In this document: in pieces, positions 10,256-57,752 of the stretch
How the letters are laid out: each line of letters opens with the position of its first letter
How positions within the stretch are numbered: the first letter of the stretch is position 1
From: a virus
Taxonomy: Duplodnaviria; Caudoviricetes
Strand: one strand, 5' to 3'
DNA length: 64,000 nt
Virus record (IMG/VR): IMGVR_UViG_3300021255_000050
Coordinates: 51,380-115,379 of that record
Program-made: the position numbers and the translations under genes
Notes under the pieces: generated by a model
What the model was told of the DNA's origin: nothing
The model's input: the letters and a program-made list of their open reading frames with translations, nothing else
Databases searched by the model: none

Positions 10256-10269
10256 ATAAAAACACTTCC

Positions 10270-20355: not shown

Positions 20356-23300
20356 TTACCAGCTAAGTCTTGTAGTTGCGATGCCTTGACCTGAGATCTG
20401 CTTTACAAATTCCTGGCCGACCTTCTCGGCGAGTTCCTGAAGATCGAGGTTGTCATTCAGTTGGTTCGTGCTTACGTGAATGTCGCCGACGGTAACGGTT
20501 GGCTTACCTGTCAGCATATCGGAGCGGAACGCGGTCGAGAACATGGGGACGCTCACGCGAGAGAACGCGCTGATCATCTTGCGCATGTCAGCCATAACGC
20601 CGCTGTCGAGCAAGCCACGAATCATTTCGCGGTCATCGCTGTTAAGGAAAGCTTCGGGCTTGGACTTAGTGCCGTCAACCCATGCCGGGCCGGTGTAATC
20701 TACGAGGCCGCCACTCTTGTATTCTGAAACATTGATCTTGTTCTTTAATGCTTGCGCATAACCATGTACCATTCTTACTGTTGTTGCTACATCACCATAT
20801 CGCTGTGGGTTTGCATTAACAAAAGACGCGGCCAATTCATCCAGCATAGCTTCGGCAGCCGCTCTTGCTTCTTTTTCCGTTCGGAAACCTTGAAGGGTTC
20901 GTCCCTGGAATCCATGCGCCGTTTCCCATCCAGCTTGATATCTCTTTATTGTTGCAATTTTCTCGTCGCTGTTAGCATTTTTGTTTGCACCACTGTTGGT
21001 ATTGCCACCGGTGTTGCCGCCGCCATTACCGCCACCGCTGCCATCGCCGCCGTTGTAATTAGCAAAGTTCTCGTCGCTGTGGAAATATGTAGCCATATCT
21101 TGCATTGCTGCAATCCATGCATCATATGAACCAGAGCCGGCATCTACATCGAGCCACTGATAAAGAAGTTGCTTACGCTTGTCGTCACTGGCTGTCTGGT
21201 ATTCATCGGAGGCCATCATATAAGCTGCGAAGGATTCTCTGTCACCGAGTATGTTATGCACTTCATCCCAGTAGGTATCAAGAATGTGCAGCATCTGCTT
21301 ATAGGTATCGGTCCAACTCTGAACCATTTGTGTTTGTGCATCTTCAATACTGTAAGTGTATTCCTTTACATTTTTCTTCAGCCAATCAAAAAGCTCTGTC
21401 TGGTTAAGCTTCATAACTCCATTAACCTCTTCGGCAAAGTTATTAGCATCACGCAGCAAGCGCTCCAGATCTTCGTCACCATATGTTACGTACTGATCGT
21501 AAGCTTCGATCTCGTCGTCCATGCTCTTCTTCTGTGCTTCTACTTGTTCTTCTGCGATCTTCCAGCCGCGCTCTTCCTGCAGATCATCGATCTTCTTCTG
21601 CAGCTCCTTCACATCTTTCGTGCGGGTGCTGTCCATGCTGATAAGAGCAAGCTGCCTCTGGTATTCAGCAAGCTCTTCGGCCTTCTTGGCTTCGTTACTT
21701 GCGTCCTTCCTGCGCTGGAGTTCTTCGTCAATATACTGTTTCTTCTTTTCGAGAGCTTCCTTCTCTTTTTCAACGCCCTTCTTAATGAGCAATATGTTGG
21801 CGCAGCAGGTTGTCATCCTTGCGCCGTTATACAGTGCACTTAAATATACTGCCAGTGGAAACCGCCGGCGGTTTTGCGCAGACCACAAGCAGCTCGCCGA
21901 ACCATCTCTTTTCCGGGGAGACTTTGCGTGGCCGCTTTTGCGCTGGGATAAATAACACCGGTCTCAACACACAAGACCGGTTTCGAATTTATTTCTGCTA
22001 GCTTTTGCTTTGTTTCCTCTGAGTGGTGGAACCCTGTTTTTACTGCACTCATCTTCTTTCGGTACTCCTCTGTATGCATTGCGTTAACGATCTTCTGATG
22101 CACCTCTGGTTCCGCAAGTATCTGGCGCCGAAGCTCGATGTACTCCGGGTGTTCTTCAATGTATCGGTGCAAGCTTTCGATCCGGCGAGCTGTTACTTCG
22201 GGCGAAACCTCGCGACCACCTTCACCGCCGGCTGTCATGTTGTAGCCGTACTCCGGGTTGTTCGAATGGTAAGCTGCGATGAACCGTTGCTCTTCGCTGT
22301 TGAGCGAATCAATGCTGCAGGGTTCGAGGAGGAAAGCATCGAAAGCTTCGGGACCATACTTATTATATGCGTACTGCAGATGAGTGTTAGGGTGGGAACC
22401 GCGCTTTAGTTTACTCATGTGTTCTTTCAATCTCCTATCTACGTTTTTGGACTGGCCAATATAACACTTATTATTTACCATGTTTCGAATCATGTAGATA
22501 CCACTTTGAATGCAACCACCTGCCTTAGGTGGCACTGTATAACCCTCACACTTTCATGCGAGTTCAGACTATATCTTGTGTGCGCAGCAAAGCGCAGCAC
22601 ACCAACCGCTTCGGCAGCAATGACGGGGCGCTGCCTACTCCATATAGGATAGTCGTTGAACCTTCTTCTCAGCGGGCTTTGCAAAGTCTTATGAGAAGCT
22701 TGGCTGCTGATTGCCCGTGTACATCCGCGCCATTTTCGAGCATTCGCGTTTGCTCTCGCGAGCTGCGCTGTAGCTGGCGGGCTTTGGGGTGTTCCAGCAA
22801 TTCGATTGGTAGGGACCGTATAATCCCATTCGTCTTGGTAGCGTTGTTTAATCGCGTCGAGAACCGTCGTTTCCATTTGGACGCGAGCATCGAGCATGTC
22901 GCGCTGGATCTGGATGCGGTTCCGAATTTCCTGATCAACGAGGTCTTCGAGATCAGTATGCGTTTTGAGGATAGCTTGCTCGTTCTGTTTCATCTTCTTG
23001 GTGTTCGCGTCAATTGTATTGTTAGTTTCGTCTAACTGCTCTTCGTACTGCAGCACTTGCTCGTAAAGTTTTTGCCAGTCGTCGGAACCACGCTCTGTCG
23101 CGGCAAGCTGCTCGCGAAGCTTCGTGATCGCGTCGGCGAGGACCACGCTCTTCTCGCGCTGCAGCTCGTTCTCGTACTCGATCATATTGTTGACGTTGCC
23201 GAGCTGGCCGAGCTGTTCGTACTTGGTTTCCTGGAGTTGGGTCATCTTGATGCGGTGATCGGCAAGAGTAATTTTGTTCTTGAGGTTTTGGAGAAGCTTG

Positions 23301-26300
23301 TCGGCTGCAGATTTACCACCGCCGCCACCGCCGCCGGCTGGCTTAATACCGCCACCACCGCCGCCGAATTTTACTGAGTCTGATTTGAGTTCGGCAACAT
23401 ATTGTCCTTCAGAATTCTTTACGATATCCCAGTTAGCCTCAATGTATGCCTGAAGAGTTTGGAGTATACTCATTACGTCGTCACTGACTTGTCCTTGCAA
23501 TGCCGAAATAATCGAACCGATTCCTACGTCTTCAACAGAGCCGCCGTTAAGCATAATATGCAGAGGATTATCCAATTCGATAGTTCCAAAGTCTATTGTA
23601 TTAAGAACATCGTTAATAGCAGCAGTCGCTGTTTGTGCAAAGCCAGTAGCTACTTCTATATCAGAAGATTCAACACCTTTAAGTAGCTGCTCTACAAGAC
23701 CAGCATTTGCGGAGTCCTTAACGAACTTCTTATTATTAATACCTGTTTGCTGCATGATAGAGGAAACAACATCTTCAGATCTATTTCCTTTGCGCCACTG
23801 TTGTCTTGCCCATTGGCGTTCATTAGCTTCAAGCAGTTCTTTATTCATATTGTTAAGCGTTTGATTTACATCTTGCTGTGAACCATTAAGCCCCTGCAAG
23901 TTCTTTTTTACTGACTCTGTGTTATATCCATATTTACCCATCGTTGTATTGGCAGTATCAACAACTTTCTTTAAGTCTCTGAATGTTTTAGCAGAATCTC
24001 TGTTCTCATCATTAAGAGCAGCAAGTGCTTCTGTCCCACCATCAAACTGTTTGATCATATCGACGAGCCATGTATTATCACTCAGATATGAAGAGAAACC
24101 GGCAAGATCAAGAGATCCTGTAGAAAGCGCACCAGCAAAGTCGCCACCGGCATATCCATTGAGGGCGCCCATCATGATGCCAGCCGTTTGATCAGACCGC
24201 AGTCCTGCCATAGAGGAGTTGTTGTACAGATCATTCAGCAGCATATTGTAGGTGTTTGGATCACCAGTGAGTTGCCATGACTGAGTATTTTGATCGTATG
24301 TGTACAGCCTTGCGAAAGCTTCTGCGAGTCCGCTGCCTTCGAGGAAACTCTGGAATTGACTGCCATTTTTAATCCAGTCAGTTTCGGAAGATGTCAGCGC
24401 GTTAAGCAACGATTGAGCATCGCCAGCGCTAGTAGCCATTTCAAGCAGTGTGTTAACGCGACTATTCTGAAGTTGCTTGGCACCATAGCCAGATGAGTTA
24501 TTTACAAAGCTTGCAAAGTCGCTTTCGGTCCAGGCGTCTGTTACTAAGTTTGCACCTTGAGTAATTGCATTGGCAAGAGTTCGGAAAGTTTCTGCAATAT
24601 CTGCAGCGCCATCCATGCCAGAAGTTTTGATCATGGTTGCCATTTCATCAAGCGTTGTGGCATATCCTGAGTATGAAGTTCTCATGCTTTCACGGACTTT
24701 ATTCACGCTGTCAGCAGAAGCATCAAGCGAATCAACATCCATGTCACTCATGTCACCGAATTGTTTTGCGTATTCTTTTATCTTCTCGCTATCATACGTA
24801 CCGTACTTCGTCATATTACCAAGTTCTTTATATGCTTCAGAGAACGCAACCACATCGTCAACGATTTGGTTAACGGTACTATTGCGCTGCTTTGAAGTAC
24901 CGAAGAGACTACCATACTGATTGAGGAGATCAGCATTGAGTTCCGGGTTTTCAAGCAGCTTCTGAGTAACTTGAGCTTGGCGAAGCTCTTCGTTGATTTC
25001 GTTAATCTCGCCGGGGTTAAGTGTACCGCCAGCCATAACGCGGGCTGCGTACTTGCCCCATGTGCCGTAGTTACCGAGAGCGGCTGCGAGGCCACTGTTA
25101 GATGAGTCGAAGGTTCGGAGTGTATCAGTGTCGCCGTTGGCAAGAGCTGTCATGAACTTCATTACATCTTCATTGCCGTAAGCTGTATAAGAGTTGTAAG
25201 CATCCATGCCGTAGGCATACTGTGCGATGGTATTGAGTATACCTTGCCGGTCGCCGTTCTTAACGAGAGTCTGGAATGCTTCGTCTTCGGCGAGCGTTCT
25301 AGCGAGATCAGAATTTGCAAGGACGCCTTTTGATATGGCATCTTGATATGACATGCCAGAGTTCATAAATTTAAGAAGCTGCATTGCGTCGCGGCGCGGA
25401 TCATATGTGTTGGCTACACGCTGCGAAACTTGAGCTGCGGTTGGATTAACGCCTGGAATAAACGAAACACTATAATCATTATCAAGTCCAAGTAATTTTG
25501 CAGCTTCAGATTGTTGAACTTTAATGCCATATTTCTGTAACTGAGAAATAAAACCTTCTCTATATTCAGGTGGCAAGCTAGCCATAATGATAGGTATCAT
25601 ATTAACCAACTTGTTTTTATCTGCTGCAACGGAGCTGCCATAAGTTTTCATAAGTTCTGTGTTTGACATACCCATAATTGTGCTTGCATCAACATTGAGA
25701 TAATTTGCCAACGCATTGTAATTCGAATCACTATGGCTGCCGCCGATGATTGCATTGAAAGCGTTAATACCCATGGCTGTGGTTGTGAGGGAGCCGGCTA
25801 TAGCATTAACTCTACTTGCTGCATCAGAGCCAACATCGAGTTCTGCAATTTCTTTAAGGTTGGAAGCAATGTCACTGGTAAGCTTACCAAGCTTTACAAG
25901 GTCATCATAACCACTGACTTTTACTTTGACTTCGAAATCATGAAGAAGACCTTGACCTTCTGGAGAGGCACGCTGCTCATCAGTCATGTTGAGGTATTTG
26001 TATAGTTCTGGGTAAGCAGACTTAATTTGTTCTTCGAGAGTGTCATCCATATTTTCTGACATAGTTTTCCAATCTGTGGAGTTGAGGAGAGCTTGTGCTT
26101 GCTGTGCAATATAGGCGTTGGTAAAGATAGATTCAGTTGCAACGAGAGGATTATCCGTCGGCAATGTCCATGAACCGGAAGAAGAAACCGTTCTTCTTGT
26201 ACCTGGACTATCCATTACTACACCTTCTATTGTATCTCCGGCTTCCCAGTCAGAAGATGCAGATGACCAGTAAACGCCATGTGTTGCACTAAAGTTAAGA

Positions 26301-29300
26301 AGTTGCTGCAGAAGTGGATTGGTAGCTGCAATATCGTTTATGTTAAGTTTTTTGGTTGGATCGGCTGCATCCATAATTCCTACTATAGTATCTGCCATAC
26401 TGCTTGTGAAAGAGTCTATATTTGACTCTACAGCATTTTCGAATACCGAATAAAAGAAATCGAGATTTTGTTCAACATTAGCAACACTTGTACTAAATGC
26501 TTTGGCAAGAGTAGCTTTCATTTCCGGGGTAAGGTTATCTTTCCCTGTAGCAAGAATTTTAGACTGGTCAGCCATAGTTTGAAGAGTGCTAGATGCTGCA
26601 GAAAAATAGTCAGTTAAATTCTGACTATTAAGAGATTTTTTAAGAAGATATTCACCAAGATCTGCTGCAGAATAAATTCCATCTTCAGCACGGAGACTAT
26701 CAATGATTTTATCAAGTTCGGCATCATTTTGGAGAAGAGATGAAAGATTGGGAACTTCAATGTCAGTGAGGCTAAGAAAATCATTTATATTTGACACGTC
26801 CAAAAGAGAGTATAACTTTCTGTACTCTTCAATAAATCCTTTGTTCTTGCTTGTTTGACTAATAGATTTAGAAACGGCAGAAATAGGTGAATGTTCCTTA
26901 AGTCCAGTTATGTTATTAATAATATCTTTTCTAAAGGCATTATAGTCAATGGTTTTATCTTCTTTTATATATTTATCCAACCAAGATCCGTTTTTAGCAT
27001 ATCCTCCAGAAATGATGTATGAATGGATAGCATCAAAAATACTTTTGTCGCTGAGATCATTCAATCCTATTCCGTTTTCGCCACCGATACTATATATAAA
27101 TCCTCTAGATGTTGGATCAATAAATTTACTATAATCAAAACCGCTATTTATTATCTCTTCCAAGAATTTAAATATGTTATCTGGATTCAGCAAATCCTCT
27201 TCAGGGTATTTGCTATAATAATAATCAAGCAAAGCGCTTTCGACATCAGTATTTCCAGATGTTAGCGTCGTCCAAGAATCTGAATATCCGTTTGTTATAA
27301 CATCCTTAACATATTGTTTTATTCGATCTTTTCTAGTCAGATCGCTTGTATAGTAAAACTTGTTTAAGTAACTGTCATTGTCATAAACTTGATCGATAAA
27401 ATGCTGTGCTGCATAATAATCTTCTTGCTTTTGCCCGTCTGCATTCAAATGATTTATAACTTCATCGGCAGTTCTATATGAATGCCAAGCATCATAAGGC
27501 CTTGAAATATCGTTAGCTAAATACATTGTAAGCAATTCTTTTAATGCGTCACTTGGAGTAATTCTCGTTCCGGAAAGAATACCGGTTAATTTGCTGGCAG
27601 CAGATTCATCATAATATCTATAATCAAAATCATTTGGATCATATCCTTCGTCTTGTAACTTCTTACGCCATTTTTCAATATCTTGAACTGTTGAATTAAC
27701 TGTTACCGGAAGAACTTCCTTTGATGTTTTACCAGCCAAACTGTTAGATATTGTTTCTTTAGCTTTACTCGATTCTTCTTCTATTATTGGTTTAGCAATG
27801 CCAAGAGCATATATCAAATCGTCTTTTTTCTGCTCTTTCATAGCTTCCTTGGCTTCTTTATATAATGTAATATAATCTTCTAGGCTTGCGTTTGTAATAT
27901 CTATTGAACGACCTAATTTTGGGAAAACAGCAGATAATGAAAGAACTGAATTAGCAAGTTCAAGTGAATGCTCTGAACTGATCTCACTTAATGAATCGTA
28001 CTTTTCGGTTATTTTTTCAATAGATGAAATAGCTTTATCAACAGATTCGTATTTTTGTTTGTATTGTTCATTATTAAATTTCAACTTTTCCCTTGCATCT
28101 GAATTAGTGTCATTGTTAGGAGTTTTCGTACCACCAGATAATCCGGGTAAAATATTAAACAAAAACCCAGAACTAGCAATACCAAAAAGACTACCAATTA
28201 TACCGGCAATAGGAGCAAGAGGAGTTGCAGCAAGTCCTATAGTTGTTATAGATTTGATAAATACGCCAGTCAACAAGGACATGATTGTTTCAGCGATAGC
28301 AATTGTTTGTTTCCCTGCATTATTCAAATCAGTTAAACCCTGTATCATTTTTGTAATGTTGTCAAATATGCTAGTTATTTCATTGCTTGAACCAAGTGAT
28401 GCTATGAATTCATCAAACGTGGACTTTAAAGTATCTAACGCCGCTTGAATGCCTTTAATTGAGACTTCATATTTTGATTGAGTTGTTCCTTTTGCGTTTT
28501 CAGTCAAACCTAAATATTCATCAAGTAAGGCACCACCGTCTTCACCCATACCTTCCATAAGTGTATTGAACATATTGGCATTTCTATTACCAACCATAGC
28601 ATATGTGATATTGTTCTTTTGTAAATCGTTTAACCCGTTCCATACTTTTGCAACATCTCTTAATACATCAAAAGAACTTCTAAAAGAATCCTTGCCATCA
28701 CGCAGTGAAATGCCAGCAGTTTTCAATGCAGCTTCCACGTCATTTATATTGGTAGTTTCTCCACCTTCATCTGTAAGGTATCCTTCTTTTGTAACTCTAT
28801 TCATTCGACTAAACAAGGTTTGGAAAAATGTTCCAGCTTGATTTCCGCTCAATTGAGTCTTGCTCGTTGCGATTGTTAACATTGAAGTAAGTTCTGCATA
28901 TGAAACGCCTGCTGTCTTTGCCGACGCTGCAGCTTTCTGCATTCCTTTTTGAATCTCTTCTGCAGTTGTGGCAGCGCTATCACCCAATGCGACCAATACA
29001 TCCATAGCTTCTTCAACAGAACTAACAAGTCCTGTTTGAATAGCTGTTGTTAATCCCTTTGTGGCATTTGTAATATTTTGGCCTGTGACTGTGCTAAATT
29101 TAATAATTGCCTCAGTTCTGTCTTCCACTTCCGCATCAGACAAGCCCTGCCTATACAATGCAGCTTTTGTTTGAGTAACATTTTTCACAGAAGTATGAAG
29201 ACTCTTCGCTTGTGAAAGAGAACTAGAACGAACAATACCCATTTCCTCATCTGATTTCCCAGTGATTTGTTGAATGGTAATCATGTCTGCATTAAACTGT

Positions 29301-32300
29301 TTTACAAAAGAAGTTATTTCATTGGCTATTTTCATAAATAATCTGCGGCCCAAGCGCATAATTAATCCGTCAACAGCACGACTTACATTCATAAGAGATG
29401 TTCCGACAAAACCACCAGCACTACCAAAATTCTTCATTGCCTTTTGTGCAAATTCTAAATTGTTTTGCAATTCTTTGATTTTGCTATTTGACGCATCCAA
29501 CTGTTTGTCTATATTATTCATTGATTCTGTGTATATAGAGTCTTTAGTTTTTCCATAGTAAGAATGCTCTAAATCATCTTTTCGCAATAACAGCGCATCG
29601 CGAGTTGCTTCTTCCGTATTTAATTGCGCTTCATAATTAGACGAATTATTTTTCCAGTAATTATATTGTTGTTCGTTATATTGTAATGACCGCCCAATAA
29701 TGTCAGAACCATAATACGTATTGGACATTTTATAGCGAGCCATGTTTTGTTCTAATTGATTCTGATATTGCATAGCTTGTGTTTGTTGCCTAACAAGATC
29801 AAGCTCTTGTTTTTCTTTCTGCGATTTATCCAAAGTACTTTTTAGTGTATCTGCAATCGCGCCCTGATTCGCAGTGTTATCTGGATTGACAAATGGGAGG
29901 AATTCTGCCGGCAATGCATCGATACCATTTTGATTTATAAATGTATTGATAGCATTAGCATAACTTCTGGCTTTAAGATCATTCATTGTAGCATTTGCTA
30001 TTGGCATGCCTGTAATCGAAGAGAAAAGATTATGCATATTCTGCAATTGATTAATATCATATCGATCTAGTTCAAGTTGATCCATTCTGTCCAGTTTGTC
30101 AAGATCAGCCATCTGCAATCTATCTCTAATTTGCATCAATTTGTACATTTCAGGATTTCTTGATTTAAAGCCTGCTTCATCAGCTTCTCGTTGCCATTCT
30201 AATTCAGGGTCTATCGCTTGTTTAAGGAAGTCCATATATTTTGAATGCGTTATCCTTCTATCTTCCTGCTTTTGTATAACCGCATCCTTCCTAGTTAATA
30301 ATGAATTTGCATATGCTTCGACCGCTTTAACTTTAAGACCACTTTCATATTCATCAAAATCGAAAGCATGCAATGAGTCCATTAAACCATTTAACGTTGT
30401 TTGTTGCTTTTCTGAAAGTTTCTCTCTAGCAAAGATTCTAGTTAAATCGGCTTTTTGTTGTTCGATCTCAAGACGTTTTTTAAGAACTTCTGCTTGAACA
30501 TTATCGCTAATACTTGTTGTACCAAGAATGTCTTTCGTGGCAGTACTCTCTGCCAAAAGAGTATCATTTATATATCTCTTTCTAAGCTTATTAAGATTGT
30601 CTTCAGATTTTAAATTTTCAAATCGACTTATAATAACACTAGCATCAACAGGTTGAATAATTCCTTTTTTAGAAAGTTCGGAAACATTTCCAATATTCTG
30701 ATTAATATCTTGCTCAAATGCATCCATCATCTGTTTAATTGTCAGTTTCTTCATATTTGGGCTTACCTTGCCATTCATTTCATTTTCAGCTATATTATAT
30801 GAATCTGCAAGTGTTTCAAGCATTCGCGTTTCAAGGCGATTTTTATATGTAGCCACTTCTACTGCTGCTCTATTGTATGGATCTCGCGTTGCTTTTTGCG
30901 CTTCTATAAGTTCTTTCTGTTGCTGTTTGAGTCTTTCTCTTTGAATATTTGAATTTGCATTAAAGGTATCAATTTCTGTTTGTTCTTTCTCTTGTTCTTC
31001 TTTTGTTTTGGCTCTATGCTGATTGTTTCTATCCTTTTGTTTGTCATCCAAAGTCTTCCACTCATCTTGAATGGCTTTTATTTTTAGTCCAATTTCAGCA
31101 TAGTTTTTGTCGGCTTGGTCTACAGATTTACTCAATGAGTCCCATTCTTCGATAACATTATCAATTTCTTTTGATGCAACAAAACCTTTATTAACACGTT
31201 CAAGCGAATCGGCAAGTTCGTTATAAGATTTAATTGCAGCAGTTGGTAATGTTTGGTTGTATTTATCTTTTGCTTTTTCTATTGCGTTTCCAAGATTTTT
31301 TGATTCTGCATATTGTTTATTTGCCTCAAGAACTTCTTGCTGTCTCTCTGCGGCAAGAATTGTTTGATGGTACGCTTCCCAAATATTACCATATGGTTTA
31401 TCATCGGATAAAAACATTTTATCTAAAGTTCCGGTCATTTTAGTAACGTCTTTCATCGTTTCTTTATAATCTTCATGAGCTGTAAGAGTTGCGCCTATAC
31501 CTGTAGCATTAATACTACCAGCAGTAAGAGCATCATGAATTTCATTATCCCATTTATAATTTCTTAGCGCCAAAGACTTATCTTTTCCAATTAATATATC
31601 ATGAACCATATTCTGAGCTGAATAAATAAAATCCCCTCTAAGCCCAGTATTTGCGAGTTCTTGCATAGTTTGTACAGCAAGTTTGATGTTGTCCATATTT
31701 AATTTTAGCGCTTTTGGATCAACTGAAAAATCATGTGTATATGACCCAGTTCCTGAAATAACATCTGGGAAAATAGCTTTAAGCGCTTCAAAATTATTAT
31801 TTGTTGTATCAAGAGTTGATCCGTCACCCATGACAGCCGCAGGACTACCTCCATTTTGGAATTGATCTGCCATAGCATAAGCCATAAGTTGTACTTCAAC
31901 CTTCTTTAATTGTTCATTTGTCAATGTGTCCCATCCACCATATGTTTTTATATCAGCAATTGTAAGCTTATGATTTTGTATGTTTCTAAACAAAGCGTCT
32001 TCTCGCCCTGTAAAATGAATATCTTCCCCGCCGAGTATCTTTTTGCCAACATTAGACATAGTAAGTATATGTTCATGTCCAAGATAATCATAGATATCTG
32101 TTGGGAACAAGGCACGAAGCCCATTTTCAGAAGTAAGAAAATCTCTGACATTGTGATACTTTCTGTTTGTTCTATTAACGTATGCCTGGCCAGTATATTC
32201 CTTAATAATATTTTCGTATTCGCTTGAAAGACTATCTTCTTCTAACTGTTTTCTTATATATTCGTTAAAGCCTGCATATCCTGAAGTAAGTATCTGGCCA

Positions 32301-35300
32301 GATTCATTTTTACCATGAACTAATTCATTGATAAGATCAGTCGTTTGAGCATCTGTCAATGTTCTGCCTTTGCCTTCTTTTACATTTTTGTCAACTAATT
32401 CTTGTCTACGTGTCCAATATTCCTGTATGATATCCTCTGTAGCGTGTCCAAATGCAGTATCTCTACTTGTCCCTGTATCAGAGTGTTCAGGCTTACCTAG
32501 ATTCTGCTTTATCCATCTAGATCCACCAAACGTTTCATCGGCAAAACCAAGTATATTTGTTATAGACCAAAGCGTATTATCTAATTGTTCTTGAATTGTT
32601 TCTTTTGGCATTCTTGCTAGAGTCCTGAGTTTATCGTCATCGTTTTTCTCAGATCGCCATTCTGAAAAATTATCTTTGTTGTAAACTTTTAAACTTTTCA
32701 AATCAAGATTGCTATATGGGTTAATACCAAATCTTTCTAATGCAACAAGACGAGCGCCCCAATCCTTAGATTTCCCTGAAACATTGCCTTCATACAGACC
32801 TATATTCGGATCAATAATATTTGCAAGCGTTGCACCGCCAAATGCTTCAATAATCTTATCAACATCGCTTGCTGTTCTTCCGATATTCCCCTCTGCCTTT
32901 CGTGCTGCTTCTTTCATTTCAAGAAGCGAGAAAATATCATCAGAAGATCCTATAAGAAAATCGCTTTTAAGTAACCCAGAAAGATATGTTTGCATTCCTT
33001 TAATATATTTTCTAGTTTCTTTCGTGAGTTTAGGTTTATCACCAAGTACGCCGGAACTTTCAAGGGAGTCCATAATACCAATAAAAGAATTTTCAAAAGC
33101 TTTATCCCAATCAATTTCTTTGTCGATATTCTGACCATGGCTTCTTGCTATCATTCTTGAAGTTAGGCTAGAATAAATATTACCAGTCATTGTCCTTGTA
33201 GGAGCATTGATCTTAAATAAATTAGTATCTCTAAATTTGTTATAGTCATAGTGTCCTCTATCATCTTTGCTTTTCATTAATGTGTTATAAAATTCAGACC
33301 ATGATTTATATTTATTCATGATCTCTTGTCCTTCTTTTGTCGAGTTAAAGAAAAAACCATACTTTGCAGCAACTGAATTTGCATCATATTGGGAAGATGC
33401 CATGTTAATTGCTTTAGCGGTTTCTCTATTTATTGGTATTTGTAAAGCATTTCTTGTTATTGCATTGGGAGCACCAAGACGAAAACTTTGTTGTGCATAT
33501 GCAGATATCCATTTACCTATATGAGCAGGATCTTTTGTATTAAATTCTGTTAAATCACCCATAATGTTCTGCTTAAGAGCGGCTTCTCTTTGACTTTTTT
33601 CTTCTTCAGTCATTTGTCCTTTTCTCATAAGGTCGTTATGAGTTTTGATTGTTTTCGAAAATATTGTTTGAATAATCTTTGACATTGGAGCATTTGAAGA
33701 TATAAGATCAAAAATTTCATTAACGTCGCCATCAAAGTCTTCACTTTGCAATAAATCTAACAAAGGAGATGACTGTGAAAAATATATAGCGTTTGGATCA
33801 AGCCCCAATAATTTTGTAAGATCCTTAAAGCTTTTAGACTTTCCAGCTCTTATAAGTGCTTGTTGGTTAGCTACATTATTAACTTGCTGTAATGAACCAA
33901 TGGATGCAGGAAATCTACTAATGCCAAGCATGTCTGACAAGCTTTTTGAATATACCGCGGCATTATCAGCTATACGTACATCAGATATTTCTGAACCATT
34001 TTTAGGGTCAATTAAAGAATTAACAATTCTACCAGCCGCATTTACGACGGCACCTTTTACTTGCCGTTCAACACCATTTTTATCCTTTATATTAGCCACG
34101 GCATTTGGATCCCACTTATATCCAAGTCCGAGCATGCTTGTTGGAATTTCACTACCTTCTATTCTTCTACGATACATGCCGCCCTTTGTAGGTTCAATGT
34201 CTTGATATAATGCATTAATAGCATCGGAGAAAACATTTGCAACCCATGGTGCTGCTAACCCTCTATGCGTACCAAGTTCTTCCGGGACAACAAGATCCCC
34301 TCTGCCAACTCTTTCTAACATGTTTCGACGGAAAGCTTCAACTCTATTTTTATATTGCTTTTGGTTTAAGAGAGTTGGATTATCAATTAGCATCTTTTGC
34401 AAATTTGAATCGTCCGCGAACACATGCTTAATTTGACCAAGCGGTGTATTGAGGTCGGTGTATAAGTTCCAAAATGCATCAGAAAATACTTGAGCTTGCG
34501 TTGCGTCAATTGACATTAACTGAGCCAGCTGTGATGGTATCCATGATAACGTTTTACTGCCGGCTTGGGCAGCTGTTTTATTTACATATATACCACTTGT
34601 TCTTATACGATTCGCGAATTCTTTTGACAATTCATCAGATGATTTTGTAACTTTATACGTCTTCCCATCCGGGCCTGTTACATCTTTCTGAAAAGCAATT
34701 CCGAAACCCTTCAAATCAGCCTTGTTGAGAACAACATCTGTGTCTGCTTCAATAAACTGTATAGATCCATCAGGTGCACGAACTGGGATTTTCCCACCGA
34801 AAAGATCAACCATCTGCTTCATATTGACAGAATTAAGAGCAGATTTAACACCAAGAATACGTCCCTGAAAAGCCGTGCCTCCAGTTAACTTTGACGAAAG
34901 AAAACTTGCGCCATTTAAACCTGGGCCTACTCCTCCTTGCCCTTTCGTATCCTCTTCAATATCCATTACAACAACTTTCAAGTTCGAAAGGTTAGTTCCA
35001 AAAAGGTCTCTAATATCAACACCTTCGGTAGCTATTTTATTCATATATTCAAAGTATCCAGCAAAATCTTTTACATTTGTAAATTTGCCGCCTTGCATAC
35101 CTCCGGTGAAGAAATCTTTGCCATATTTACTTTCTATTCTATTCTTTAACTCCAAAGGAATCATTTCAATTCCTGTAGACTTTGGATTAATTCTTGTTGC
35201 GGCATATTTAACACCATTAATTGTTCGCCCATGTAAAAAGAGATTGCCATATTTCTTTTCCAAATCTTTTCTTATATCATCAGGTGTATTCGGATCAGCG

Positions 35301-36820
35301 AGCCTCGGGTCAATTGAGACATACACAACGTTATTTAATGCTGAATTATGTGGAAGAACTTGGTGGCCACCTGTTTCTTCTCGCATAATAGCATCAAGTT
35401 CAAGGCTTTGATTAACAGGTATTTTGTGTTCTCTATTAGCACCAACTGAATTATCTTGAAAATTTTCTCCGCGTAACAATTCATCAATTGTATATGTTGT
35501 TGCTTGGTATGTATTCGGTTGAACCGCAAAGTTAACATGTCCTATATTTTTATTAAGCTTTGGTGTTTTGGTAGCCTTCCCATTTTTGGGTTTAGGCATA
35601 CTGGCAAGATAAGAGCTTGTTGCAATATCACGAAGATCAGTCAGTTGTGTGTCAGTAAATCTTCCAGGTGACAACCAACTAAATTGTTTTGTTAAAAATC
35701 TTTCAGCATCAAGCCCGCCATATAACATTTTGTTTGTTTTGTTGAGAATCCTATCAAACATGTTTGGGTCTGCGACATCGGATATACCATACATTGGTAA
35801 ACCTTTTGCACCATTAATAGTCATATCATGGATAAGAGCTGCAGCGGCATTGACCTGCTGCCTCGTAATAGCTTTGTCAAGATAAAAATAACCATTTTCT
35901 CTACGAAGAACTTGCGCTTGTTCGAACGCCTTTGCTGCATATTGGTTTTCTCGTACCAATGAAGCTACACGCTTAAGTTCATTTTTCGAAAGACGATCAT
36001 TATTATTTTTAGAAGTGCGTGTCATATAATCAGACTGTTGAATCTCGGCGAAACCAACATTCGATGCACCTGCTTTAAACTGCCCTGGTAACATATCGGC
36101 AAAGCTATTCATAGGCCCCATGCGTTGGTTTTGTCCTCTTAAATGATTCATAAATGATCCACGTTGAGTTTTGTCTACTTCTGTTATGATATTTAACCCA
36201 ATGAGATCTGACATGAAATTATCAAATGTTTTATTGTTTGCAAGATTTTTAGAAGCCTTCCTTGTAAAATATGTCATGTCTGTTTTTATCTGGCTTGCTA
36301 TGTCTTGATAATCTTTTCTATGCATAACCGCACCGCGAATAACATCATCGGTTACAATGCCACTATGCGTTGAAGTGTTATGAGAAAAATCATTTGCAAC
36401 TTTTAAAATTATATCTCTTAGTTTTGGCAATTGTTGATTAACAACACTTATATCATGGTTAGTTAATCCAAGGCTTGATAGACTCCTTGCGAGTTGTGAT
36501 GCAACTGTTAAATCTTTTGATAACCCGGCAATCGTATGCAAACCTACTTCGTAACGACCAGCATTAAGAGTGTTAGAATAATCATTCGACGAAGATGAAG
36601 TGTACTCCTTTTTAGCTTCATCCATTATACTAGTAGTTTCTTCTAGATCGTGCCTAATCTGTTGTGTAAAATTTCCGAAAACAGGCGCCATTGAAGCAGC
36701 GGCTGATTCTATACCACGAATTCTTGACTCAAGACGTTCGCTTGCATCCGCAGCATTGACAAGATCTTTATAGCCGCCCATATCCATTTTTATTTGTGCT
36801 GTAAATATAGCATCGGCCAT
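20356..36820 (-). CDS. giant tape measure polyprotein, spliced: exon 1 36820-22823, exon 2 21789-20356 (~5,143 aa)
   Basis: TP901-type TMP core at ~29310-28400; C-terminal GGLVDYTGPAWVDG..KPEAFL; the splice joins ...QDEWD|LIKKGVEK in frame; position between TAC and Dit. Confidence 0.88.
21790..22822 (-). mobile_element. group I intron (1033 nt) in the TMP gene
   Basis: 5' splice after U with P1 GGGAU/GUCCC; P AATTGCTGGAA, Q AATCAGCAG, R GTTCAACGACTA, S AAGATATAGTCT; terminal G at 21790. Confidence 0.92.
21840..22535 (-). CDS. intron-encoded GIY-YIG homing endonuclease with NUMOD-type C-terminus
   Basis: SGIYMI..NNKCYIGQS..R, GYN, HHSEETK, KPVLC.ETG..Y.S, TAGGFHW. Confidence 0.93.
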   Translation of the reverse strand: MPPKAGGCIQSGIYMIRNMVNNKCYIGQSKNVDRRLKEHMSKLKRGSHPNTHLQYAYNKYGPEAFDAFLLEPCSIDSLNSEEQRFIAAYHSNNPEYGYNMTAGGEGGREVSPEVTARRIESLHRYIEEHPEYIELRRQILAEPEVHQKIVNAMHTEEYRKKMSAVKTGFHHSEETKQKLAEINSKPVLCVETGVIYPSAKAATQSLPGKEMVRRAACGLRKTAGGFHWQYI

Positions 36821-50695: not shown

Positions 50696-50813
50696 CCAGT
50701 ATAAGAGAGGCTTATGCCTCTCTTTTTTATTTTTATTTCTTTACGGTCAAGAGTGGCGTCTTGACTGTGGTGACGACCACTCAGCCAAAATAAATAAGAA
50801 AGAGGTAACTACT

Positions 50814-51014
50814 ATGTTGACTAAAGAAGAAAAGAATTTGCTCGAAAGGGCAGTGCGCCTCATGCACAAAACAACAAATTATATGACATGGGCAGCGAAA
50901 CGGATGGATAAGAAAGAGTATTTTCTTGATCCAGAAGTAGAGTATGCCTTCAAGGTCAGCGACTTCGCTGGGAAAGCATACTGCTGCTTAAGGCAGAAGG
51001 AACAGGATGGTTGA
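50814..51014 (+). CDS. hypothetical early protein
   Basis: GAGGT SD before ATG 50814. Confidence 0.65.
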   Translation: MLTKEEKNLLERAVRLMHKTTNYMTWAAKRMDKKEYFLDPEVEYAFKVSDFAGKAYCCLRQKEQDG

Positions 51015-51124
51015 AAAGAGAGGCTTTGTCCTCTCTTTTTTTTATTTTTATTTTTATTTTCTTCACGGCATCCACAGGGGGTGCACCGGCAACAGGGTAC
51101 TGAAGAAAATCAAAGGAGGCAAAT

Positions 51125-51427
51125 ATGAAATACCTTTTTGATGTTGATATTCCGCTCCGGCAGGGTAACGCGTTCCTTACCGGAACCATCAAGAATCTTG
51201 GTGGTATTAAGGCCATCGATGTCAAGATGGAACTGACCGTCGGCAGCAAGGTAGCAACGCTCACAGCTCCTTGCTGTGCGATTGGAGATGACATGTGCGA
51301 TTCAATCGCATCCGCAATTGAAGGTTTTGTAGCCTTTTGCGGTTTCGATTGGGACCGCACGCCCGAAAGGCAGCAGCTCCATAAAAGCATTCTGGAGTTT
51401 GCTGAGTCCTATCGGGAAAATGATTAG
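51125..51427 (+). CDS. hypothetical early protein
   Basis: AAGGAGG SD. Confidence 0.7.
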   Translation: MKYLFDVDIPLRQGNAFLTGTIKNLGGIKAIDVKMELTVGSKVATLTAPCCAIGDDMCDSIASAIEGFVAFCGFDWDRTPERQQLHKSILEFAESYREND

Positions 51428-51520
51428 TGTTAAGAAAAAGAGAGGTGGCTTCGGCTACCTCTCTTTTTTTATTTCACGGCATGCACTGGCCATGCATGTC
51501 AATGCGCTCAGAGAGGAGGC

Positions 51521-51958
51521 GTGTGTATGAATCATACTGAGCGTCGTATCTTGCGTAATATTATCATCGCGCAAGTGGCAAGCGATGGTGGAAAGGACAA
51601 GCCTTGGCTTGTTAACTCTCTGCCAAGCGCGCTGAGAGAAGCCGGTATGAAAGCATATAAATCCGGCTACTCTGCAAAAGACGTGGCGATCAGGGCTGCC
51701 TTGTCAGATATCGCAAGGTACAACCCTGATTGCATCCGCTTCTTCATCATGAAGGATGATCCGAAGAAGGCGAAGTATATCGTCTATTTCGATATCCGTA
51801 TTGGTGAAGAACGGAAACAAGTGTCCTTTCATACCTCTTGCAACCTCAAGAGGTGGGTCCCCGGTTGCAACCGCAGCATGGGGAAATGGACACCCGGAGC
51901 AGGCTCCAGACAAATATGCTTGGAGATTGCGAACCTGCTATGCGGCTCCGAAAGATGA
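51521..51958 (+). CDS. hypothetical early protein
   Basis: GGAGG SD; IVYFD...QVSFH motif seen in phage proteins. Confidence 0.7.
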   Translation: MCMNHTERRILRNIIIAQVASDGGKDKPWLVNSLPSALREAGMKAYKSGYSAKDVAIRAALSDIARYNPDCIRFFIMKDDPKKAKYIVYFDIRIGEERKQVSFHTSCNLKRWVPGCNRSMGKWTPGAGSRQICLEIANLLCGSER

Positions 51959-52148
51959 CGTGTTCCGCAGCGTCGCTTTCGGCTGGCTTCGGCCAGTGTA
52001 AGAGTCCCGGCTCTAGGAAGTTCCGGGGTTATGCGGGGAAAGGAGATGGATAAGTAGGTTCCCATTAAGGAGAGAGTTTCGACTCTCTCTTTTTTATTTT
52101 ACGGCTGTGTGGCCTACAGCCGAATCCTCAGAGAAGGGAGGTGTACGT

Positions 52149-52295
52149 ATGGTATTCGCTCTGAGGAATGCCATTCGTCTTATGAAGACGAAGGGCAACC
52201 TGTATGAGGAAGACCGTCTCTTCATGCTGGCACTCCAGCCGGAGCTGCCGAAGCTGAAGAGGAGACGGAGCCATCGCCTCTTCGGGTTGCTGTGA
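52149..52295 (+). CDS. small basic hypothetical protein
   Basis: GGAGGTG SD. Confidence 0.55.
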   Translation: MVFALRNAIRLMKTKGNLYEEDRLFMLALQPELPKLKRRRSHRLFGLL

Positions 52296-52454
52296 TAAAT
52301 AGTCCCAACCCCTGTCACGGTCGTCACCCGACGCGAGTTGACCGACGCCCGTGCGTTGCAGATGTGAGGGACAAGAGAGTAGTTTCGACTACTCTCTTTT
52401 TTATTTTACGGTCAGCGAGGCCAGCTGGCCAATAATAACAAGGAGGTTACTGAT

Positions 52455-52610
52455 ATGTTTAAGGTAACTTTGGAAGGTATGTATGGCGCGTTCATCATGG
52501 AATTCGAATCCATGATGGATGCAAGGCGGTACGCAGCTGTTTGCGAGCTGCACATCCTGAATTATATCTTCGTCGAAAAGCCTATTGAAGACGAAGATAT
52601 AATCATCTGA
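52455..52610 (+). CDS. small hypothetical protein (51 aa, not in the ORF track)
   Basis: AAGGAGG SD; fills the space between two repeat elements. Confidence 0.6.
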   Translation: MFKVTLEGMYGAFIMEFESMMDARRYAAVCELHILNYIFVEKPIEDEDIII

Positions 52611-52790
52611 CTAAGAGAGCTTCGGCTCTCTTTTTTATTTTTATTTCCCTTTTTAACGCCAGCTTCGGTGCTGGTGTTTGACTACGGCTGTACGTCAACG
52701 TAGTCGGACGTTTCTTGATATTAGTATCTATGCAGTGCACGGCATGAGATGCAGGGAACAACTATAACTAATGAATTTTGGAGGTAAACT

Positions 52791-53324
52791 ATGACTTACG
52801 CTATTGCTTGCTTCGCTATCGCTTTTGTTATGGTACTTGTAAATGCCATGCTTATGCAGGAACAGGAACAGGCTGAGGCTACCGCTGCAAAGGACGGTAT
52901 CCACTACCACATCACTGTTAAAGACTTTAACACGTGGTGCAAAGAGCATCCGTTGTATGGCGATCATGATGGTGACAACCCGGAAATGGAGAGGTTCTTC
53001 AAAGAACTCGACGAGTTCATTGATGAAATCTTCCCGAAAACGGGAGAATGGGAACCTAAAACCATCGTCACTGAAGATCCTCAGACTTGGCCGGACGCGG
53101 TAGAAGTCTTTGAGAACCTTCTTGAAGACGGCATCCCGAACTTCTATGAAGGCCCTGAGGAATCTGACATTGTGGTTAGTGATATTGAAACTGACTTTAA
53201 TGTACCTGAATTATTCTGGGCTATCGGTCCCATCTCTGCTGTTTATAGGAGGGAGGTTGATAAGATTCTCGGCGTTGAGCCGGTATATATACAGCCGGCT
53301 GAAATCGACGAGCTGCCGTTCTGA
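52791..53324 (+). CDS. acidic protein with N-terminal TM/signal and C-terminal DELPF
   Basis: GGAGG SD; hydrophobic N-terminus; SSB-like acidic LPF tail. Confidence 0.65.
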   Translation: MTYAIACFAIAFVMVLVNAMLMQEQEQAEATAAKDGIHYHITVKDFNTWCKEHPLYGDHDGDNPEMERFFKELDEFIDEIFPKTGEWEPKTIVTEDPQTWPDAVEVFENLLEDGIPNFYEGPEESDIVVSDIETDFNVPELFWAIGPISAVYRREVDKILGVEPVYIQPAEIDELPF

Positions 53325-53496
53325 TGCCGCATATTTAAGAGGGGAGATTAACTCCCCTCTTTTTTTTATTTTTTTCTTCTTCACGGCCTCGCACCGCGAG
53401 GAGGCTGACTCACAGGGTAACTGAGACGCGCGGCGACGTAAACGCCGGCTCGAATGAGCAGGAAATAAACAGATACAAATTAAGGAGGATACAACA

Positions 53497-56400
53497 ATGG
53501 CAAACAACATTAAGGGACTTCGCAACATCAACACCACCCCCGAGTGCGGGAAGACCATCGTCATCAACACCACCCCCGAGTGCGGGAAGACCAAGAAGGT
53601 TGCCAAATTGAGCCGCGATGAGCACGGCACCTGGCGCTGCAGCGTCCTGATGCCCGGTGGGAACATCTGGTCCCAGAACTTTGAAACCTTTGAACAGGCC
53701 GCGGAAGTCCTGTTCAGGGCTGAACAGTCCGATAAGGTTATTGGCTGTGTCGGCCAGATCCGTTACGTAGGTCAGGCCCGCACGATCATTTGTGCAGAAA
53801 GCCCTATCCGCAAGGATGGGAAGCGCAAGGTCAAGAGCTTGACAAAGGATCAGCGACGGACCCTTATGGCAGAAGACTCGCTGTATGTAGAACACATCTC
53901 CACCGGTGAGCAGGTGACTCGTCTCACCCTGCACCCGGACTATGACGGCAGCTACGGTGCCAAAGAATGGAAGATCGACACCGTGCGCAAGGCTCTTTCC
54001 GCTCTGGAGGAGGAGGCTATCAAGTTGGGCGGGAAGGATGCCTATATCCGCGTCGTCTCGACTATCCCGGAGATCGACTCTTGGAGACCGCAGGATCGCG
54101 ACAAGGCTCAGGCCAAGCAGGACCTGTGGCAGACTGTGTGCGTGCACGGCATCACTTTGAACGGGAAGACTTATGTCCCGTTTGGTGCGCCGGTGAACGG
54201 TCTGAAGGATAACAAGACCATCTGGGTCTTGAAGGATATCAGGGATGAACTTCGCGAGATTATGAAGCGCGGTTCTTTGGATTCTTGGCTCACCACAGAA
54301 GCAAAGAAGATTGCCTACCTCTACGGTTTGCAGGCTACCGCGCCGTCGTGGTGGGTTGACCTCCCGCTTCGCCCTGAAGATTGTTACTTCAAGAGCGGTG
54401 AACCGATTGTAGACATCAAAGATATGGTGGCATACGGCCACAAGAATAATGATGTCACGCTCAATGAAAGTGATATTTCTGCCCATCAGGGCGATGGTCC
54501 AACCTTCTTCTCCGTATCTCCTCTCATGCGCGAAGTGTTCGCCGAGAGGCTGATTGAAGAAGGAAGATATGACAATATGGATGACGCCCTCAACCATGTT
54601 GACCGGGAACTGGATAAGATGCCGGGCATCTTCAGCGGCAGGACAAGGAATGGTGCAATTAAGCCGGCCATGTACAATGTACCTGGAAGCGTACAGAAGT
54701 ATTGGCATGCTCATGGTGTTCATGATCGCGATGGCCGCGATGTTGACCGCCTTGTTGTGATCGGCAATACCACGGCAAGGAAGACACCTATTGGCCCCAA
54801 GGGCTGCGCATATGAAACTGAGGATGCCTGGGCTAATGGCATTCGTGACGGTTTCCAGCTCGGCGTAATGATCCCCGAGCACGAGGACAAGCTCACCAAG
54901 AGTAGCTATCAGTTGCTCCAACTTCTGTACGGAGCTTCTGACGAAAATCTGATGAAGCTCGCCCAGCACGAAGCAAAGTACATCAACAGCCTCGTGATTG
55001 GCAAGGGGCGCTACCGCCTGATGGGCCGCGAAAAGGCTATTGTCAGCGCGTTCGAAGGGAGCTTCTTGTCACATCCGATGATGAAGTCAGAAATGACAGA
55101 AACTTATCATAGGATTATTGAGCAGGCTTTCGAGGGTATGATCCACAATCATATCCATAATGCCATGCTCTTCCCGGATCCGGTAGCCTACATTCAGTGG
55201 TTGGGTGACCTGCCGGTAACTGGGTGCATCGAGGCGAATACGATCGTTTGCCCTGCTGCAAAGATGTCTGGCAAGGGCATCATGTATCGCAACCCTCTGA
55301 CAAACTTGGGTGCTGTACGTGAAGTCGAAATCATCAACAAGTGGCCTGAGGAATATGCGGATCTCTTCCCGGCCAAAACAAATGCAGTCTTCCATAGCTG
55401 GAAGGATGCAAATGTGACACGCATGGAAGCTGATGCTGATGGCGACCATGTCAGCTACAGTTTCCTGAAGCCTCTGGTTGACTGCGTGCGCGAATGCCAT
55501 GAGAAGTATGGCGACATCGCTATCGACTTCGATCGTGATGAGGTCAGCGACAAGCATGTAGTGACTGAGAAGTCTCTTACTGCATACTTCATGACCAGAG
55601 TTCGCAAGAATAAACTCGGCGAAAAGTGCTATAACCTTAACAAGTTATACGCAATGACTGCCGATAACGAGTGGTTCGCGAACCATCCGTATGTCCAGCT
55701 GCCTGAATGGGCAGAGGAAGAGGTTGACTTGGCTACTGAAGTCAGGAATGTCAGGGATGTACAGAATGCCGTTGATAGCGGAAAGCACGAAACGGCTGAA
55801 GTGAATGATAACAAGCAGGATGCTTGGCTCCGTGGCATGAAGCAGAGCGATGCCGTAATTCTGCGGCAGGCTCGCGATCTGCGTGACAGCGATGGCAATA
55901 AGGTCAACGATATCGATGATCTTATCGCGCTGATTAAGCAGCTGAAATACGATGGCAATGGTGCCATTGACCGGTATATGAGGATGCTGCGCGGCATGGT
56001 TAGCATTGACCTTCCTGCCGAATGGTTTGAAGGAGAATTCGAATCAAGCTGCATCTTCTTCAATACAGAAGACTGCGGTAGCCGTACAGGTATCCGCGGC
56101 CTCTGGCGCGAGGGAGATTACGACAAGGATCTCAAGTTCGCACCGAACGAGGGTCTCTTCAATGGTATCTCTCGCCGTTATCGTGATGAATGGAAACAGC
56201 TTGTTGCTGGTGAGGACAACGCTATGAAGCGTATGTCCAAGCATGACTTCGACGAGTTGTGCAAGAAGCAGGCGCTGGACGAGATCGAAGAGCTTGTTAA
56301 CACATTCGGTTGCAGCCTCAAAGAGGCGCATGATGTAGTGGCACGCCGTATTCTCGAACTCCGTCCTGATCCCAAGACCAAGGCCAATACCACGAATGAA

Positions 56401-56586
56401 GGCCGTGCACGTTGGAATAGAACACTGTGGGACAGCTTCTGGAACATCTTCGGTGAGATGACGATAGAAGCTGTCAAGCAGAACCGCTACATTGAGAACT
56501 TTAACATGAAGGAGGTGCTGAATCTCACGATCGATGAACTGCTGGATATCGACATGGATGACATCGAGTGCAACATCGATGACTAA
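53497..56586 (+). CDS. single-subunit two-barrel RNA polymerase (YonO / RNAi-RdRP-like)
   Basis: YRNP followed ~45 aa later by MEADADGDH (DxDGD, 55432-55446); VDSGKH; 1029 aa. Confidence 0.75.
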   Translation: MANNIKGLRNINTTPECGKTIVINTTPECGKTKKVAKLSRDEHGTWRCSVLMPGGNIWSQNFETFEQAAEVLFRAEQSDKVIGCVGQIRYVGQARTIICAESPIRKDGKRKVKSLTKDQRRTLMAEDSLYVEHISTGEQVTRLTLHPDYDGSYGAKEWKIDTVRKALSALEEEAIKLGGKDAYIRVVSTIPEIDSWRPQDRDKAQAKQDLWQTVCVHGITLNGKTYVPFGAPVNGLKDNKTIWVLKDIRDELREIMKRGSLDSWLTTEAKKIAYLYGLQATAPSWWVDLPLRPEDCYFKSGEPIVDIKDMVAYGHKNNDVTLNESDISAHQGDGPTFFSVSPLMREVFAERLIEEGRYDNMDDALNHVDRELDKMPGIFSGRTRNGAIKPAMYNVPGSVQKYWHAHGVHDRDGRDVDRLVVIGNTTARKTPIGPKGCAYETEDAWANGIRDGFQLGVMIPEHEDKLTKSSYQLLQLLYGASDENLMKLAQHEAKYINSLVIGKGRYRLMGREKAIVSAFEGSFLSHPMMKSEMTETYHRIIEQAFEGMIHNHIHNAMLFPDPVAYIQWLGDLPVTGCIEANTIVCPAAKMSGKGIMYRNPLTNLGAVREVEIINKWPEEYADLFPAKTNAVFHSWKDANVTRMEADADGDHVSYSFLKPLVDCVRECHEKYGDIAIDFDRDEVSDKHVVTEKSLTAYFMTRVRKNKLGEKCYNLNKLYAMTADNEWFANHPYVQLPEWAEEEVDLATEVRNVRDVQNAVDSGKHETAEVNDNKQDAWLRGMKQSDAVILRQARDLRDSDGNKVNDIDDLIALIKQLKYDGNGAIDRYMRMLRGMVSIDLPAEWFEGEFESSCIFFNTEDCGSRTGIRGLWREGDYDKDLKFAPNEGLFNGISRRYRDEWKQLVAGEDNAMKRMSKHDFDELCKKQALDEIEELVNTFGCSLKEAHDVVARRILELRPDPKTKANTTNEGRARWNRTLWDSFWNIFGEMTIEAVKQNRYIENFNMKEVLNLTIDELLDIDMDDIECNIDD
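53526..53593 (+). repeat. perfect 32-bp tandem duplication with 36-bp period
   Basis: CATCAACACCACCCCCGAGTGCGGGAAGACCA at 53526 and 53562 (INTTPECGKT twice). Confidence 0.9.
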
Positions 56587-56746
56587 TCCGCACGACATAA
56601 GAGGGGTAGCTTTGGCTACCTCTCTTTTTTATTTTATGGCTTCATGGCTGGAGCTGCTGGCTTGGCAGGATACCAAGGCGCGCTGCGACGTAAACGCAGG
56701 CTCATTGAGCAAGAATGAACCACATAATATTAAGGAGGAAATAACA

Positions 56747-57259
56747 ATGAAAGGACTTCGAAATGTTATCATCAATAAGCCAAGCGTTGCCAAGCCGGTT
56801 GCACGCAAAGTATTCATTGACATTGGCTATGTTCACCCGGCAACACGTCAGTGGCACAGCAAGAGATTCGATAGTGTTGTGGATGCTGACAAAGCAAGGG
56901 ATGCCATACTGCGCAAAGGCATTCCTTGCGCGCGCTTATCAAGCGCAACACATGAATTCACTGTATATGGCTGCACAGAGGATTCATTCATGTCTTTGTT
57001 CATCAGTATGGGCGGGGACTGGGACATCGATGACGATGGCGACCTTGTGCATGCTATCTATAGAAAGATCATGGACGGTGCAGAAAATGATCGTGTCACG
57101 ATATGCGGCCACGTCTACACGATCAAGGACGAAACGATTCGTCAAGATGAACAGTGGGCCGCAATCTATAACGTGTACAGCGGATACGATAAAGTAGGTA
57201 CGTATTCGCTATATGACGCCAATGATGAGGATGTGATCTGTTTCTATTGGCAGCTGTAA
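56747..57259 (+). CDS. hypothetical protein
   Basis: TAAGGAGG SD. Confidence 0.7.
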   Translation: MKGLRNVIINKPSVAKPVARKVFIDIGYVHPATRQWHSKRFDSVVDADKARDAILRKGIPCARLSSATHEFTVYGCTEDSFMSLFISMGGDWDIDDDGDLVHAIYRKIMDGAENDRVTICGHVYTIKDETIRQDEQWAAIYNVYSGYDKVGTYSLYDANDEDVICFYWQL

Positions 57260-57715: not shown

Positions 57716-57752
57716 GATGCCTTTAAGGCGCACATTAAAAGGAGGACAATTT

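Follow-up and report, generated by a model that had tools for sequence, protein, structure and literature searches.

The 64,000-nt stretch analysed here, called the window, is the right-hand 64 kb (positions 51,380 to 115,379) of the 115,379-bp IMG/VR virus record IMGVR_UViG_3300021255_000050 (Caudoviricetes), which carries a 107-bp terminal repeat. Its minus strand holds a siphovirus late module in the order terminase large subunit, portal, major head protein, virion and tail proteins, tape measure protein, Dit, and a 2,058-aa tail-associated protein with Prophage_tail and YomG_N domains. At the tape measure position of the tail module, one open reading frame (ORF) encodes both a tape measure core and, ahead of it, a domain with the fold and motifs of a two-barrel single-chain RNA polymerase. 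A second such polymerase, P0080, is encoded on the plus strand. The features of both loci are listed in Table 1.

Table 1. Features of the tape measure gene and of the plus-strand block around P0080. Positions are those of the window; residue numbers are those of the respective protein.
Feature	Position	Strand	Basis
Conserved N-terminal region, aa 1-450	35471..36820	-	Conserved blocks in a 5-sequence alignment
Two-barrel RNA polymerase domain (predicted), ~aa 462-1335	32816..35437	-	Fold model and motifs
R654-x4-K659 within FQGRILGVK, first (beta-like) barrel	34844..34861	-	Invariant in 43 sequences
R969-F-P971 (R-x-P), second (beta-prime-like) barrel	33908..33916	-	At least 90% conserved
DFDGD metal-binding loop, aa 1028-1032	33725..33739	-	At least 90% conserved
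PD-(D/E)xK nuclease-like domain (candidate), aa 1420-1665	31826..32563	-	Motifs, ESM Atlas, weak Exo5 match
Tape measure core including PF10145, aa 2320-2980	27881..29863	-	Pfam and PHROG
Hydrophobic membrane-type segments, aa 2840-2892	28145..28303	-	Kyte-Doolittle scan
Tape measure exon 1, aa 1-4666	22823..36820	-	ORF; homologs align gap-free to ...RYQDEWD, end 22823
Group I intron, 1,033 nt (splicing predicted)	21790..22822	-	Rfam RF00028 and contiguous homologs
GIY-YIG/NUMOD3 homing endonuclease ORF, intron-internal	21840..22535	-	Pfam PF01541, E 5.3e-10
Tape measure exon 2, aa 4667-5143 and stop	20356..21789	-	tblastn with homolog C-termini, 40-46% identity; spliced frame open
P0080, second two-barrel RNA polymerase, 1,029 aa (candidate non-virion polymerase)	53497..56586	+	Motifs, PF05183, ESM Atlas
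Nine hairpin + T-run-A-T-run (+ACGG) modules	50702..57310	+	Candidate phage-specific terminator/promoter units

The first-pass annotation had noted three polymerase-type motifs in the translation of 36820..22490, and they lie exactly where it had placed them, well upstream of the tape measure core. The segment AFQGRILGVKSAL (aa 650-662; 34873-34835) contains FQGRILGVK from aa 651 onward. S-R-F-P corresponds to aa 968-971, with the R969 codon at 33916-33914. The basic pair of the first barrel (R/K...K, as in GRHGNKG of the beta subunit) is R654/K659, which aligns with R384/K389 of the P0080 family described below. Chaban et al. (PMC10770324) used as a filter [RK]xP followed 20-100 residues on by DxDxD. 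Here, 56 residues separate R969-F-P971 from D1028-F-D-G-D1032.

Across 43 relatives at 22-45% identity, R654, K659, and K704 are invariant, and F651, Q652, R969, P971, D1028, D1030, G1031, and D1032 are at least 90% conserved. In DxDGD, the aspartates are fixed and the second position is variable (F, E, L, I, or Y); the motif occurs in every full-length relative but one, which has DLDSD. The conservation in homologs on which the first-pass proposal depended is therefore found. The fixation of these motifs at such low identity, while neighbouring positions vary, suggests a working active site and not a chance motif, and is the pattern expected of one. The region could instead be a catalytically dead relic that has only a structural role in the tail or acts as an ejection plug. 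No Pfam model matches this sequence-orphan family and its activity is predicted only, and these points weigh against an active enzyme. However, the three aspartates, R-x4-K, and R-x-P remain fixed across dozens of lineages, and we consider a relic very improbable.

A model of aa 450-1400 was obtained with AlphaFold2 from a 32-row alignment (mean pLDDT 83.3, pTM 0.82). It contains two double-psi barrels in one chain, a beta-like barrel followed by a beta-prime-like barrel, and then bridge-helix-type helices. In the numbering of this slice, R205/K210 correspond to R654/K659, R520/P522 to R969/P971, and D579/D581/G582/D583 to D1028/D1030/G1031/D1032. The R654/K659 pair is located on a beta-hairpin (strands E202-206 and E209-216 of the slice), and the DFDGD loop precedes a strand (E584-591) and a long helix (H596-618). 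Foldseek searches of the Protein Data Bank (PDB) with the model returned QDE-1 (E 1.2e-8), plant RDR2 (E 1e-7 to 5e-4), P23-45 gp64 (E 4e-3), P74-26 gp62 (E 1.2e-2), and phi14:2 gp66 (E 0.1). In BFVD, the matches were phage proteins annotated as 'RNA-dependent RNA polymerase' (E 5e-12 and 6e-9). Superposition with VIA-align gave 15.0 for QDE-1 (522 residues, 4.9 Å), 14.9 for RDR2 (495, 3.8 Å), 11.8 for gp64 (450, 4.8 Å), 10.4 for P23-45 gp96 (8H2N, model 21-720 against chain 327-1077; 373, 4.5 Å), and 10.0 for gp62 (436, 4.6 Å). The double-psi barrels anticipated in the first-pass annotation are present in the model, with matches to QDE-1, RDR2, and the P23-45 polymerases, and aa ~460-1335 almost certainly adopt the two-barrel polymerase fold.

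Neither the single sequence of aa 400-1400 nor a seven-sequence profile found a polymerase among PDB chains at E values up to 10. The best matches were to ribosomal protein eS17, which we rejected as chance matches. The threshold of PF05183 was not reached by the whole protein or by eight relatives.

A link to a known family was obtained through P0080. This protein was the sole further candidate when the large ORFs of the entire genome were screened with a regular expression for DxDGD. Its family consists of two database proteins and of ORFs in two of five related viral records, with R384-x4-K389, R598-N-P600, and D646-A-D-G-D650-H as invariants. Three of the five family members match Pfam PF05183 (RdRP), with a best E value of 9.2e-9. 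In the ESM Atlas, 27 of the 30 neighbours of P0080 are RdRP-family phage clusters (score 0.91, 199-200 shared features). A P0080 profile found nothing significant in the PDB, and the AlphaFold2 model built from five sequences was unusable (pLDDT 42). Comparison of the 32-row tape measure alignment with the P0080 family by hhalign gave a probability of 97.1% (E 5.7e-11). The alignment spans 393 columns and brings all three motifs into register. A shallower tape measure alignment gave no significant result (probability 1.7%). Because the P0080 family is in part matched by PF05183, the fused domain is homologous to an RdRP/YonO-type polymerase family, with an indirect link to PF05183 itself. Judged by their sequences, the fused domain and P0080 are two paralogous two-barrel polymerases of one phage. 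Fold, motifs, and hhalign thus agree with the first-pass proposal of a two-barrel single-chain RNA polymerase fused ahead of the tape measure core.

The fusion is found in a large family. A word-indexed protein search returned four giant homologs (5,041-6,663 aa, 27-44% identity) and no shorter free-standing relatives. An alignment-based scan of IMG/VR gave six loci on contigs of 44-148 kb, and a single-sequence scan of the same database gave no relatives. An exhaustive HMMER profile search of 1.84 billion representatives returned 78 proteins at E <= 1e-3, 54 of them below 1e-30. Nearly all of the complete proteins have 3,700-6,500 aa and are matched at ~aa 410-1400. The shorter entries are fragments from contig ends, and none of the matches is a free-standing form. 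The fusion of polymerase and tape measure is shared by around 40 full-length relatives, each of them a giant protein (3.7-6.6 thousand residues), and the family comprises at least 54 clusters at 50% identity. The tblastn searches of 50,697 GenBank phage records with the polymerase slice and with P0080 gave no match. Among species-representative genomes, the only matches were two contigs of 100 kb and 136 kb (L010, L011), binned with an Acutalibacteraceae metagenome-assembled genome.

The partner of the polymerase is a true tape measure protein. PF10145 (PhageMin_Tail) matches aa 2538-2744 with an E value of 2.6e-25, and five PHROG tape measure families match aa 2320-2980. These are the only Pfam or PHROG matches in the protein; aa 1-2300 have none, and the conserved region at aa 1-450 likewise has no Pfam match. 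The core, the membrane-type segments, and the position of the gene between the tail tube and chaperone genes and Dit are those of a phage tail tape measure protein. The flexible glycine runs of the protein are far from the polymerase, at ~aa 4440 towards the C-terminus.

The tape measure gene is longer than its first open frame, which covers 36820..22490 on the minus strand and encodes 4,776 aa. The C-termini of four homologs run contiguously from ...RYQDEWD, which ends at 22823, to LIKKG..., encoded from 21789 onward. Rfam RF00028 matches the core of a group I intron at 22545-22902; its score of 64.6 bits exceeds the gathering score of 50. The last letter of the 5' exon is U and that of the intron is G. 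From the contiguous homologs, the intron core, the endonuclease ORF, and these boundary letters, we derived a gene of two exons split by a group I intron with a homing endonuclease, for which splicing is predicted. The splice sites were placed by homolog alignment and not at the Rfam boundaries, because the Rfam match begins 80 nt upstream of the true 5' splice site; over those 80 nt, exon sequence is aligned to P1/P2 with little information. We rejected the final ~110 aa of the 4,776-aa ORF as coding sequence because they are read-through into the intron. The intron is located 477 codons before the end of the gene. With the intron removed the protein has 5,143 aa (4,666 from exon 1 and 477 from exon 2), close to the ~5,140 aa given in the first-pass annotation.

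The same annotation had argued that a protein of this length is too long for a ruler and is probably cleaved. Such a polyprotein would release the polymerase before or during assembly, to be packaged or injected separately. The great length of the protein speaks for this, and some tape measure proteins of other phages are processed. Against it, neither a protease domain nor a recognisable cleavage site was found between polymerase and core in Pfam searches. Moreover, in Thermus phage P23-45 the polymerase is present in virions within full-size gp96, whose 5,002 aa go with a tail of ~800 nm. The argument from length is thus unsupported, and we regard separate delivery of a cleaved polymerase as unlikely.

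Directly after the polymerase, aa 1420-1665 contain in order the invariants G.A....I, G.E, D..FR, D-I-K-x-Y, and Q...Y, which are typical of RecB/Cas4-type PD-(D/E)xK nucleases. The ESM Atlas neighbours of this region are PD-(D/E)XK clusters (0.94-0.95), and a Pfam match to Exo5 is weak (E 0.013). A simple hidden Markov model finds the domain in the closer relatives (P0002-P0009). A PDB profile search was without a significant match, so that the call draws on the motifs and the ESM Atlas neighbours; we treat the putative nuclease as a lead and not as proven.

The gene of P0080 is embedded in a 6.6-kb plus-strand block with nine copies of an unusual module. Each has a GAGAGG/CCTCTC-type hairpin, the run T5-9-A-T3-7, usually (C)ACGG, and a second GC hairpin. 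Each short gene is preceded or followed by a module, and P0080 has modules immediately on both sides. When the 115-kb genome was scanned, the pattern was confined to this block and to the plus strand. The T-run motif is absent near the P0080 homologs of two relatives. In P23-45, the pre-early region has private AT-rich promoters and a conserved terminator motif, which the modules resemble; they could also be a run of intrinsic terminators.

Two other repeats were observed here. The part of the gene that encodes the N-terminus of P0080 contains an exact 32-nt repeat (53526-53557 and 53562-53593, plus strand, 36 nt apart), which doubles a stretch of ~12 codons (..INTTPECGKT..). Just beyond the polymerase block, at 57515-57716 (plus strand), there are three copies of the 37-nt GC-rich hairpin repeat GCGCCGnCAnGnCGGCGCGAGAG.

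The closest known arrangement is that of Thermus phage P23-45 and of P74-26, G20c, and TSP4, in which a virion RNA polymerase is fused to the tape measure protein (gp96 in P23-45; PDB 8H2M and 8H2N; Chaban et al. 2024, PMC10770324). The fusion arrangement itself has therefore been known since 2024. Full-length gp96 (5,002 aa) is present in virions and transcribes the pre-early genes, including the gene of the second polymerase, gp64 (PMC10770324). In every feature tested, the phage described here is like P23-45: the fusion lies in the tail module, and its partner is a free-standing two-barrel polymerase. Residues 1-326 of gp96 are dispensable for activity (PMC10770324) and are the equivalent of the N-terminal aa 1-450 here.

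The two families are nevertheless separate. No sequence similarity to gp96 was detectable in searches of PDB chains, a set that should include 8H2M and 8H2N, or in the tblastn searches of GenBank phages, and in structure QDE-1, RDR2, and gp64 are closer to the domain than gp96 is. The inter-barrel linker is ~200 aa long, in contrast to the short, disordered linker of 67 aa in the flat, clamp-less gp96 (PMC10770324); this shape thus may not apply here. Unlike in gp96, a nuclease-like domain follows the polymerase and a group I intron is present in the gene, and a metallopeptidase domain was not found in this tape measure protein. The phage also differs from the Thermus phages in its 115-kb genome, its G+C content of 35-55%, and its host, which is probably one of the Clostridia and not a thermophile. 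A literature search returned no later paper on tape-measure-fused polymerases outside Thermus phages.

The best structural matches, the eukaryotic QDE-1/RDR enzymes and the RdRP/YonO-type phage enzymes (PF05183; SPbeta YonO), have the same barrel order and the same R-x4-K, RxP, and DxDGD motifs. However, they are free-standing enzymes of 600-1,400 aa, whereas the polymerase here is embedded in a tail protein and falls below the Pfam threshold. The crAss-like phage protein phi14:2 gp66 (PDB 6VR4) is a virion-delivered two-barrel polymerase within a very large tail or ejection protein. As a fold match it is weak; it belongs to a podovirus-like virion and is no tape measure protein.

The virion RNA polymerase of coliphage N4 has a T7-like right-hand fold and is unrelated to the two-barrel polymerases. 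It is a functional analogue only, a giant injected enzyme that transcribes early genes from hairpin-form promoters, and this offers a possible reading of the modules described above.

On the basis of the gene position and the gp96/gp64 precedent, we propose the following sequence of events. The region of aa ~460-1335 would be a catalytically intact single-chain two-barrel DNA-dependent RNA polymerase. Being synthesised in one chain with the tail ruler, it would be built into the tail, and at infection it would leave the virion with the tape measure protein. The injected polymerase would then transcribe the first phage genes without the host polymerase. Its likely first targets are in the 6.6-kb plus-strand block (window 50.7-57.3 kb). 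P0080, which is encoded in this block, would then take over early transcription; it would itself be an early protein, absent from virions. By analogy with P23-45, we consider it probable that the fused domain is a virion-delivered transcriptase that starts a two-polymerase cascade.

The two-barrel domain might also be active in another way than as a promoter-directed DNA-dependent transcriptase: it could be an RNA-dependent polymerase or, in the manner of a primase, supply primers with which the incoming DNA is replicated. Of the phage enzymes of this architecture compared here, gp96 is the only characterised one, and it is a DNA-dependent transcriptase. A dsDNA phage genome with a second polymerase gene, as in the P23-45 cascade, likewise counts against such an activity. 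SPbeta YonO and phi14:2 gp66 are DNA-dependent as well. An RNA-dependent or primase-like role thus seems improbable, and the virion-delivered transcriptase remains the reading that we prefer.

The host can be approached from two sides. The lysin encoded at window 4989-6362 (minus strand) has SpoIID, NlpC/P60, and SH3 domains, which point to a Gram-positive host. Together with the contigs binned with Acutalibacteraceae, this hints at a host among gut or rumen Clostridia. Near the lysin gene there is a diversity-generating retroelement (window 6706-10291, minus strand). Its reverse transcriptase (RVT_1) is encoded at 6706-7902, and its template repeat of 128 nt lies at 8075-8202. A DUF6273 gene (8822-10291) carries the variable repeat (8831-8958) at its 3' end. 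Mismatches between the two repeats are almost confined to positions at which the template has an adenine.

Injection of a ruler-fused polymerase has so far been shown for one phage group only, the unrelated Thermus phages. The family described here is separate from these, is a sequence orphan, and has extra features. It has at least 54 clusters that escape searches with Pfam, PHROGs, and PDB sequences, which makes it likely that many large uncultured siphoviruses use this strategy. Automatic annotation, in which these giant genes are labelled only "tape measure" or "minor tail", is hereby corrected. In a wider reading, which we consider less likely than not, tape-measure-fused polymerases would have diversified separately into a large class of their own in mesophilic phages of gut or rumen Clostridia with genomes of 100-150 kb. 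These phages would eject a two-enzyme head, polymerase and PD-(D/E)xK nuclease, and the fused enzyme, paralogous to the free early polymerase, would read private hairpin/T-rich signals as the DNA enters, which would make it a second, independent case of injection-coupled transcription. The locus combines the ruler-fused polymerase, its free paralog, a private block with candidate promoters and terminators, and an adjoining nuclease-like domain. It offers a compact system in which to test how early transcription proceeds independently of the host and how a folded enzyme of ~100 kDa passes through a tail tube.

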